The notes below the pieces were generated by a model, which was not told the origin of the DNA, did not search any database, and worked only from the letters and a program-made list of their open reading frames with translations. Position numbers and translations under genes: made by a program. This document shows, one piece after another, positions 2,203 through 3,990 of a stretch of DNA of 64,000 nt (within the stretch, counting starts at the first letter, position 1; each line of letters starts with the position of its first letter). Source of the DNA: Chthoniobacterales bacterium (GTDB taxonomy: Bacteria; Verrucomicrobiota; Verrucomicrobiia; Chthoniobacterales; UBA6821); the NCBI GenBank assembly GCA_019747735.1, contig JAIEQL010000007.1, positions 10,456 through 74,455 of the forward strand, in the 5' to 3' direction.

Positions 2203-3990
2203 TCACCCACGAAACTTCCGCTGTAACTCAGCTTCCGAAAACTGAATCATTGTCGGCTTGCCTGTTGGAGTAGCATAAGGCAAGTCACAGCGGAGCAAAT
2301 CCCCTACCAGCATCATTGCTGTCGTGGCATCTTCTGAGAGCCGTTCTCGTTGGGCGGTCATGGCGCTCACGGAGCGGGCTAGTGCCTCTTCTAGGCTCTT
2401 GTTTCCTTGTCCTAGGGTCTCTTCAGGTTTTTCTTTTTGAAGATCCCCTAAAAGCTGATGAAGCAATTCTGAAGGCGCCACCTCTTTTAACAAGACTGGC
2501 ACTGTATCAATCTTCAAACTTTTGTTGGCATGAGGTCCTTCTCCAAAAAGATCGACCTCCAAACCAGCTTTCTCCAAAAAAGTACGGTGAGCCATTACCC
2601 AAGCTGCCTCGGCGGGAGAGACCTCCACCACTTCGGGTATCAGTAGCTGCTGTCGCTCGAGTATTCCTTGGGCTAGAGTGCGGAGGAGTCGATCGTAGGT
2701 AATCCGCTCCAAAGCTGCCCTGACAAGGAGTAAGACAAAACCATCACCCTCTTCAAAAATCCAGTAACCTCCTGCAATAGCCCCTACATACCTAAATTTC
2801 AAAAAGGGGTCAGTCCCGGGATCCCGGGATCCCGGGACTGACCCCTTTTTCTCTAAGCCTTTTTCTTCAACAAGGGGTGCTTCGGAAAGCCCTAAAGTAG
2901 CGGTTTCAAAAGAACTTGCTTTTCTTGGAAGTGTGTAGGGACGGGCTATCTCTTGTAAAAAAAACGGTTTGGAAGTCGGTGCTGAAAAGGTTCCCACGAT
3001 TGGAGCGATCGCATTCAACAATGCCACTCTGATTTTTCCTGGCTCTTGGAAGCGGACTTCACGCTTTGCGGGATGAACGTTACAGTCGATTGTTGCAGGA
3101 TCAGCTTCAATAAAGAGCACGGCAGGTGGCTGCAATCCTTTTGCCAAAATTCCATCACATGCTTTTCTTAAGACTTGGGATAAAAAAGGGCTGCGGACCA
3201 TGCGCCCATTGACAAAAAGAAATTGATGAGAGCGATCCGCACGACCCTCTCCTGGACGTGCAAAAAAACCAAAGAGAGTCACTCCCTCACTTTCTTTGCG
3301 CGGCACTTCCTGCATTCTTTCTAAAAAAGAAGTGCCATACAGATCGCGTAGCCGCACCGCAAGAGAATCTGTAGCTGCTAAGCGAAAAAACTCACGATCT
3401 TCTCGAAAGCAGGTAAAAGCGATTTTTGGATGGGCAATGGCTAAGACTTGCAATTGCTGGAGTAAATGGGCTGTTTCCGTCTGCTCTGTTTTTAAAAATT
3501 TTTTGCGCGCAGGAACGTTAAAAAAAAGATCTCTTACTTCTATGCGTGTGCCAACAGCACAACCACTATCAGCAACTTTGGTGATTTTTCCTCCCTCAAT
3601 CACGATTGCTGTGCCGGCTACAGCCTCTTGATGACTAGTCGAGCTAGGATGAGTAGTCATTGAGAAACGAGAAACACTGGCAATGCTAGGAATAGCTTCT
3701 CCACGAAAGCCTAATGTTTCTACTTTTATCAAATCCTCTAACGTTTTTATTTTGCTCGTAGCATGTCGCTCCAAGCAAAGAAGAGCATCCGAGCGATCCA
3801 TGCCACATCCATTATCGGTGACACAGAGGCGTCTCATTCCCCCTTCTTCAAAAGAGACTTCGATGCGTGTAGCTCCTGCATCAATGCTATTTTCCACTAG
3901 TTCCTTAAGGACTGAGGCTGGGCGTTCAACCACTTCGCCTGCTGCTACCTGGCTTGCCAGAAGATCACTTAAAAGATGAATTGCCCCCAT
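2203..3990 (-). CDS. mutL: DNA mismatch repair protein MutL
   Basis: N-terminal GHKL ATPase motif LASQVAAGEVVERPASVLKELVENSIDAGA and C-terminal dimerisation region. The likely start is the ATG at 3990 (MGAIHLL...). The track ORF extends to 4068 only because the upstream repeat arm is stop-free. Confidence 0.9.
   Translation of the reverse strand: MGAIHLLSDLLASQVAAGEVVERPASVLKELVENSIDAGATRIEVSFEEGGMRRLCVTDNGCGMDRSDALLCLERHATSKIKTLEDLIKVETLGFRGEAIPSIASVSRFSMTTHPSSTSHQEAVAGTAIVIEGGKITKVADSGCAVGTRIEVRDLFFNVPARKKFLKTEQTETAHLLQQLQVLAIAHPKIAFTCFREDREFFRLAATDSLAVRLRDLYGTSFLERMQEVPRKESEGVTLFGFFARPGEGRADRSHQFLFVNGRMVRSPFLSQVLRKACDGILAKGLQPPAVLFIEADPATIDCNVHPAKREVRFQEPGKIRVALLNAIAPIVGTFSAPTSKPFFLQEIARPYTLPRKASSFETATLGLSEAPLVEEKGLEKKGSVPGSRDPGTDPFLKFRYVGAIAGGYWIFEEGDGFVLLLVRAALERITYDRLLRTLAQGILERQQLLIPEVVEVSPAEAAWVMAHRTFLEKAGLEVDLFGEGPHANKSLKIDTVPVLLKEVAPSELLHQLLGDLQKEKPEETLGQGNKSLEEALARSVSAMTAQRERLSEDATTAMMLVGDLLRCDLPYATPTGKPTMIQFSEAELQRKFRG
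2801..2850. repeat. PE-B (GGGGTCAG-type) perfect 50-bp palindrome inside the mutL CDS
   Basis: aaaaaggggtcagtcccgggatcccgggatcccgggactgaccccttttt is its own reverse complement (checked base by base). It encodes EKKGSVPGSRDPGTDPF in the MutL linker. Confidence 0.95.

Follow-up and report, generated by a model that had tools for sequence, protein, structure and literature searches.

A 64-kb stretch of DNA from a Chthoniobacterales metagenome-assembled genome (MAG), referred to here as the window and used for all coordinates, contains a DNA-repair gene, mutL, that carries a perfect 50-bp palindrome within its reading frame. An original prediction made from the sequence had read this palindrome as a terminator-like signal that could reduce the production of full-length MutL or promote slippage. 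We find that it is a member of a repeat family whose copies reside in frame in several genes and whose ends accompany Y1 transposase genes, and that the copy in mutL is absent from the nearest orthologues. The explanation that we favour, with a probability of about 0.82, is that the palindrome is a small selfish repeat consisting of the paired ends of a RAYT-like unit (HUH/Y1 enzymes, IS200/IS605 superfamily) and lodged in frame in a disordered linker of the protein.

At positions 2801–2850, the sequence aaaaaggggtcagtcccgggatcccgggatcccgggactgaccccttttt is fully (100%) self-complementary; its two 25-nt arms adjoin without a spacer, exactly as had been claimed, and by our own arithmetic a perfect palindrome of 50 bp would arise by chance in 64 kb with a probability of ~6e-11. 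The open reading frame (ORF) around it is intact, and the encoded protein is 100% identical to the NCBI entry 'MAG: MutL [Chthoniobacterales bacterium]'. Pfam assigns to this protein the domains HATPase_c_3, DNA_mis_repair (residues 215–329) and MutL_C (403–542). The palindrome-encoded peptide EKKGSVPGSRDPGTDPF occupies residues ~381–397, between DNA_mis_repair and MutL_C and ~65% of the way into the gene, which confirms the predicted location in the interdomain linker. Folded as mutL sense RNA, the region gives a stem of 23 bp and a loop of 4 nt (−49.7 kcal/mol, z = −7.5), after which comes UUUUUGAAAUUU.

The palindrome is one of four elements in the window that are bounded by GGGGTCAG...CTGACCCC, two of them translated in frame, in mutL and in aroE (Table 1). 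The window has nine occurrences of the octamer GGGGTCAG, where 0.94 would be expected; eight of them make four inverted pairs, and a lone half-site at 35316–35323 has no partner. The near twin that the original prediction had pointed out is likewise a perfect palindrome, of 52 bp; compared with the mutL copy, it has four substitutions, which form two mirrored pairs, and one additional A/T at each end. Because two perfect palindromes differ by mirrored pairs, each copy is either a fold-back of one arm or has been kept paired. The neighbouring GNAT gene also takes its final ~13 codons and its TGA stop codon from the twin (43693–43734), and its GNAT Pfam domain ends at residue 147 of 186; the element has thus remodelled the C-terminus of this gene, besides sitting between convergent genes.

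The other two elements are longer. The one in aroE encodes a 28-residue insertion that is absent from all 13 aligned AroE homologues and that is also present in the independent assemblies L001 and L003. Just upstream of aroE, at 6611–6663, lies a separate hairpin with 18-nt arms that are 94% complementary. The intergenic copy near coaX is nested in a larger inverted repeat, the 15-nt arms of which, taccaacgtcattaa (61383–61397) and ttaatgacgttggta (61495–61509), match perfectly; this makes a composite of ~127 bp, and a similar copy is found in a relative's genome (L131, 1059–1121). Logan contigs near this copy end ~100 nt away from it, at window positions ~61572–61601. A sequence that extends 6.5 kb beyond the end of the window (L133) holds no further family copies in that extension. 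A search of the window at the Rfam gathering threshold found nothing, and literature searches for the sequence strings of the elements returned incidental primers only. Exact-protein look-ups of MutL (P0001), of the first ORF in the window and of P0272 gave no recorded match.

Table 1. Members of the repeat family in the window and the genes that host them in frame
Feature	Position	Strand	Context and composition
Perfect 50-bp palindrome	2801..2850	no strand	Two ~25-nt GGGGTCAG-type ends head to head, A5/T5 flanks; in frame in mutL as EKKGSVPGSRDPGTDPF
mutL, host gene	2203..3990	minus	595 aa from an internal ATG; ORF intact
Perfect 52-bp palindrome, twin of the mutL copy	43683..43734	no strand	Between convergent lspA (43177-43665, +) and GNAT gene (43693-44253, -)
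117-bp element, perfect 30-nt terminal inverted repeats (CAAAGGGGTCAGTTCCGTTATTCGGATATT)	6079..6195	no strand	Translated in frame inside aroE
aroE, shikimate dehydrogenase, 311 aa	5614..6549	minus	Carries a family member just ahead of the Rossmann-fold GxGGxG strand
57-bp family member, AT-rich interior (GGGGTCAGGCTTCATAA...TGATAGCCTGACCCC)	61417..61473	no strand	Intergenic, upstream of coaX

The ends of these elements bracket genes for Y1 transposases. Our screen for such genes with probe sequences gave one match, L116, and L087 and L099 followed only after Pfam verification and iteration. In L087, from Chthoniobacterales, a 313-aa Y1_Tnp gene (E = 7e-13) has the same 40-nt palindrome on both sides, with AAAGGGGTCAGTCCTTAATATTATAATATTAAGGACTGACCCCTTT upstream and, downstream, a copy that is identical at 44 of 46 positions and has A5/T5 flanks. 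The Y1 gene of L143 has perfect 44-nt inverted ends, and in L116, from Neobacillus, an element lies 21 nt away from the Y1_Tnp gene. Three further genes tie the elements of the window to particular transposases. The ends of P0263 are 48 nt long and 46/48 identical to each other. Alignments of the aroE insert with the two ends match at 41/49 and 43/53 positions, so that this insert is a gene-less miniature of the P0263 transposase unit. At 33 nt past the stop of P0255, the sequence AAAAAAGGGGTCAGTCCCGGGATACCGGGATC matches the mutL arm at 30 of 31 positions, A-tract included, and this is where the contigs break. The third gene, P0272/P0362, has AAGGGGTCGGTCCGTCATATTGTCACATTT on one side and the inverted complement of this sequence on the other.

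The proteins themselves carry the features of the superfamily. Pfam matches to Y1_Tnp range from E = 7e-13 to 5e-12, the N-H-x-H-L (HUH) and Y-x-x-L-N-P (catalytic tyrosine) motifs are invariant in 6/6 sequences, and the JGI name of homologues is 'REP element-mobilizing transposase RayT', where REP denotes repetitive extragenic palindromes. The window itself contains no Y1 gene. The products of the three genes named above, P0263, P0255 and P0272/P0362, are annotated "transposase [Chthoniobacterales bacterium]" and come from the same SRR150851xx runs as the window genes, and their GenBank protein accessions (MBX9742200, MBX9742971 and MBX9743213) fall within ~1000 of that of MutL (MBX9742227); because of these near accessions and shared runs, the three genes almost certainly belong to the MAG of the window. 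Many RAYT-like homologues (P0241, P0245, P0251, P0253, P0254, P0259 and others) are found on contigs of 1.03–1.1 kb, barely longer than the gene, which suggests that short-read assemblies of these organisms are systematically broken up by the palindromes at the flanks.

Comparison with relatives bears on whether the mutL copy was inserted. The two nearest mutL orthologues (P0002 and P0003, with 72% and 69% amino acid identity) have no inverted repeat in the linker, and their flanking DNA aligns on both sides. Between the aligned flanks, the orthologues carry ~90–100 nt of unrelated sequence, as against ~66 nt here, 50 of which are the palindrome; the event may have been an insertion accompanied by loss. 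One of these relatives bears a family member elsewhere on its contig. Downstream of the palindrome, the C-terminal domain is 71% and 65% identical to those of the two orthologues, compared with 73% between two palindrome-free orthologues, and by this measure it is free of decay.

Family members also occur, and are translated, in other genomes. Scanning species-representative genomes for the short form of the element (GGGGTCAGTYC-N(8-38)-GRACTGACCCC) returned at least 119 loci in many phyla, ~90% of which have no long ORF reading through them and are hence intergenic. Pfam-verified copies in frame were found in other genomes of the Planctomycetes–Verrucomicrobia–Chlamydiae (PVC) group, in genes for MiaA (L018), a MutY-like glycosylase (L074) and an Fe-S/NAD-binding oxidoreductase (L029). 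The MiaA copy divides the IPPT domain into two stretches, and the oxidoreductase copy has a design like that of the mutL palindrome, with GGGAATTC units replacing GGGATCC. The translated inserts start with G-S-V, G-V-S or G-Q and finish with L-T-P or T-D-P. Of the three frames through CTGACCCC, two stay open and one has a TGA, so that only two are survivable inside a gene. Among the verified intragenic copies, the flanking A/T tracts are full (A5/T5) in mutL only, are reduced to A3/T3 in aroE and are missing from those in L018, L029 and L074.

Pairs of copies can also lie ~1 kb apart, as in L010, L041 and L078, and the genes between them are ordinary genes and no transposases. In L041, a Kiritimatiellales MAG, two identical 59-bp copies (561–619 and 1567–1625) lie on either side of a gene duplicated in tandem. 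The first of the two genes is cut off within the element (...NPVKGSVL*) and the downstream paralogue runs ~150 residues longer, so that here the element shortens a gene and is not read through. Elsewhere, large families of multicopy hairpins have these outer 11 nt in common (GGGGTCAGT[CT]C ... G[AG]ACTGACCCC) and differ in their inner stems. These families are lineage-specific and were seen in Duganella, Rugamonas and Pseudoduganella (L007, L015, L022, L036, L037 and others) and in Bacillaceae (L010, L013, L023, L044, L076 and others).

One functional idea of the original prediction was that the palindrome reduces the production of full-length MutL and possibly affects the mutation rate. In the form considered here, the hairpin and U5 on the mutL mRNA would end a substantial share of transcripts, perhaps conditionally when translation lags, and would thereby lower full-length MutL and raise the mutation rate. 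The very stable hairpin followed by U5 invites this view, and a consensus terminator scan ranks the mutL site top in positions 1–20000 and calls the twin on both strands, as the strongest site in its region, with few other strong sites in the window. The twin stands at the 3′ end of a transcription unit, between the convergent lspA and GNAT genes, where the original prediction expected a bidirectional terminator; the mutL copy lies well inside an intact ORF. The hairpins of REPs and of miniature transposable elements with inverted repeats (MITEs) are, moreover, discussed as elements that act on transcription and mRNA stability (Di Nocera, De Gregorio & Rocco 2013, BMC Genomics 14:522, PMC3733652; PMC10969869), and the mutL copy is the only verified intragenic one with complete A5/T5 flanks. 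Yet the scan calls the mutL site on the + strand, antisense to mutL, and leaves uncalled the sense strand, whose tail runs U5 and then GAAAUUU. The anatomy that the original prediction described, terminator-like architecture included, is correct; what it missed is that the palindrome belongs to a dispersed repeat family. Ribosomes translating an ORF generally keep terminator hairpins from forming and would probably mask this one. The A/T tracts belong to the element, since the same architecture is found beside transposase genes; the ORF is intact, with a C-terminal domain under normal constraint; and the members in frame in aroE, and in miaA and mutY elsewhere, argue for tolerance rather than regulation. 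We consider attenuation of mutL unlikely.

If the palindrome were instead a contingency locus, slippage at its CCCGGGAT units or hairpin-mediated deletion would reversibly switch mutL and hence mutator status. The palindrome does contain 2.75 tandem copies of this 8-bp unit, out of frame; palindromes are prone to deletion, and changes in the length of a mutL repeat are a known source of mutators in enterobacteria. Fewer than three units would give low slippage rates, however, and the data yielded no length variants: where Logan contigs reach into the palindrome, they match the window as far as they extend, and a metagenome scan for mutL-type copies gave seven loci, none of them a short palindrome, and no variant copies. 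Because the twin (GGGTATCCC) and the P0255-flanking copy (GGGATACCGGGATC) lack the exact tandem structure, the tandem repeat looks incidental to the palindrome, and a switch of this kind is very improbable. We give almost no credence to the palindrome being a fold-back or chimeric join made by an assembler. De Bruijn assemblies do break at it, and a single contig, that of the NCBI MAG, spans it. Nevertheless, its left arm is found in L001 and L002, two short-read assemblies made independently from one sample series, both of which break inside the palindrome, so that it was present in the reads and is no artefact specific to the MAG; neither flank is an inverted copy of the other, a single MutL orthologue runs on in frame across it from the N- to the C-terminal half, and near-identical palindromes stand at 43683–43734 and in L139. 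An ordinary MITE mobilised by a DDE transposase, for example one derived from Tn3 or IS630, would also have terminal inverted repeats; those of the Tn3 family start with a sequence resembling GGGGTC, and some copies here are flanked by TA...TA. Against such an origin, direct target-site duplications are absent and the flanks are inverted A/T tracts, the ends bracket Y1_Tnp and not DDE genes in six independent loci, and pairs 1 kb apart flank ordinary genes. We therefore dropped the Tn3-family resemblance, in view of the absent target-site duplication and the Y1 nature of the associated genes, and see next to no chance for a DDE element.

Under the selfish-repeat explanation, the mutL palindrome would be a gene-less miniature in which two ~25-nt ends (AAAAAGGGGTCAGTCCCGGGATCCC) are joined head to head. 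The genome's own RAYT-like enzymes would have copied it into mutL by acting on single-stranded hairpin DNA, and it would have survived through landing, in an open frame, in a disordered and length-tolerant linker, where its 17 encoded residues, rich in G, S, P and D, may serve simply as linker. The A-tract, hairpin and T-tract would be built-in features of the element; because terminator-like tracts recur beside transposase genes (in L087, and at 30/31 positions in the P0255-flanking copy in L139), no selection in mutL is needed to account for them. At gene ends the element probably terminates or insulates transcription, and inside the translated mutL gene its hairpin is most likely largely masked. 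Mobilisation is proposed here from the literature on RAYTs and on IS200/IS605, as PMC3733652 summarises it, and near-neutrality in mutL is what we infer from the analysis above.

Several observations weigh against this explanation or limit it. Since the MutL linker is hypervariable and, in this genome, shorter than those of relatives, a clean insertion cannot be delimited, by protein alignment alone either; no empty-site allele of the window mutL was found. Transposition of the family is a proposal, with indirect evidence in the absence of the elements from the mutL orthologues and the 13 AroE homologues. The transposase genes are assigned to the same MAG by consecutive accessions and shared samples, not by a shared contig. 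Their products, like the other Chthoniobacterales Y1 proteins, are 310–320 aa long, with a long C-terminal extension, and about twice as long as classical RAYTs. The sole NCBIfam match, REP_Tyr_transpos (NF047646), scores 47.3, 64.1 and 63.5 bits, below the cut-off of 80; as the best and only match stays under that cut-off, the proteins are RAYT-like and not equivalogs. That the mutL copy alone among verified intragenic copies has full A5/T5 tracts leaves some room for a transcriptional effect. Finally, in a control on viral contigs, the 11-nt end shared across phyla showed no excess, with two loci for the real motif and zero, two and four for three composition-matched decoy stems. After this decoy control, we dropped the claim that this 11-mer is shared more widely than chance and a few lineage-specific multicopy families would explain.

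Taken as a RAYT-type repeat, the palindrome shows that a terminator-like hairpin within a gene can be a passenger and is not necessarily a regulatory signal. It accounts for the breaking of short-read assemblies inside mutL and beside transposase genes, ties these repeats to a large family of RAYT-like enzymes of 310–320 aa, and adds a well-anchored case of REP-type or terminal-inverted-repeat (TIR)-type elements in frame in housekeeping and DNA-repair genes of Verrucomicrobiota, with transposase genes, ends and miniatures apparently all in one genome. A more ambitious version seems quite improbable to us: Chthoniobacterales RAYT-like units would spread a ready-made bidirectional terminator, and the copy in mutL would act as a translation-sensitive attenuator or as a deletion-prone switch, through which MutL falls and the mutation rate rises. 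In that event, selfish repeats would be linked, through a conditional attenuator or switch in mutL, to the control of mutation rate; together with the copy in a mutY-like gene of another verrucomicrobium and with the excess of REPs inside repair genes that has been published, it would mean that selfish hairpins systematically tune host DNA repair.

Some further features were noted alongside. Endonuclease-type MutL proteins are marked by the motifs DQHAxxExxxxE and CPHGRP. By eye, 16/16 MutL sequences of the clade have E-V-R-A-A-L-E-R-I-T-Y-E at the position of the former and T-P-x-G-[KR]-P at that of the latter, and the window MutL may thus lack the metal-binding His and Cys residues, despite its NCBI name 'endonuclease MutL'. 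Elsewhere in the window, an imperfect inverted repeat with 36-nt arms (75%) lies at 14788–14889, and a perfect 16-nt inverted repeat (TCCTTGAAATATAGAC / GTCTATATTTCAAGGA, 7-nt spacer) lies at 47615–47653. The latter coincides with the best promoter-like hexamer pairs of its region, on both strands (TTGAAA-17-TATATT), and may be a divergent promoter or operator.

Among known repeat systems, the classical REPs and REPINs are likewise short, GC-rich, multicopy palindromes that lie mostly between convergent or tandem genes and are associated with a domesticated Y1 transposase. Head-to-head doublets are their unit too, and occasional copies are intragenic, notably in DNA repair genes and in Opitutus terrae (PMC3733652). 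The elements described here differ in that none of the four in the window has GTAG/CTAC within or abutting it, in that the stem is much longer and perfect, and in that the enzymes fall below the NCBIfam equivalog cut-off for RAYTs. Rickettsia palindromic elements (RPEs; Ogata et al. 2000, via PMC10969869) offer a parallel for residence inside genes, as palindromic selfish repeats that lie in frame in unrelated housekeeping genes and encode peptides tolerated by the fold. The same kind of residence is seen here in MutL and AroE and, in other PVC genomes, in MiaA, the MutY-like glycosylase and the oxidoreductase. As described there, RPEs appear unrelated in sequence, are ~100–150 bp long, are CGTC-tagged, belong to another phylum and have no known dedicated transposase, whereas CGTC/GACG is absent from the mutL palindrome and a dedicated enzyme is evident. 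SPRITEs resemble the present elements as dispersed repeats whose consensus is itself shaped like a rho-independent terminator; they differ in sequence, host and presumed mobilising enzyme, and are not reported as translated in-frame inserts.

The closest likeness is to the "TIRtrons" of Di Nocera and colleagues, which are RAYT-like "TIRYT" genes flanked by long terminal inverted repeats (PMC3733652). Some TIRtron repeats share a GGGGWSAS motif and form repeat families, and the same source describes intragenic REPs, many of them in replication and repair genes, that are most numerous in the verrucomicrobium O. terrae. Our elements agree with TIRtrons in their multicopy inverted repeats, in an end, GGGGTCAG, that fits GGGGWSAS at 8/8 positions, and in the bracketing of Y1/HUH RAYT-like genes, with HUH motif and catalytic tyrosine, by long terminal inverted repeats that start with this end. 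In both systems, the ends also form dispersed repeat families, some of them self-complementary and present as singles or dimers, in several phyla that include Acidobacteria and the PVC group. The 11-nt end appears to be common across phyla (Oxalobacteraceae, Bacillaceae, PVC and others), which is suggestive and consistent with a wide distribution of TIRYTs; one Bacillaceae copy adjoins a Y1 gene. Intragenic REPs, including those in repair genes and in Verrucomicrobia, and TIR families with GGGGWSAS ends are thus already on record. In the available passages of PMC3733652, the repeats described within genes are GTAG and CGTC REPs only, and in-frame intragenic copies of the present type (mutL, aroE, miaA, mutY) are not among them. 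What is new is this member of the group, in which Chthoniobacterales enzymes of 310–320 aa with a long C-terminal extension go together with a mutL-type short form that is a perfect, loop-less head-to-head dimer flanked by A/T tracts.

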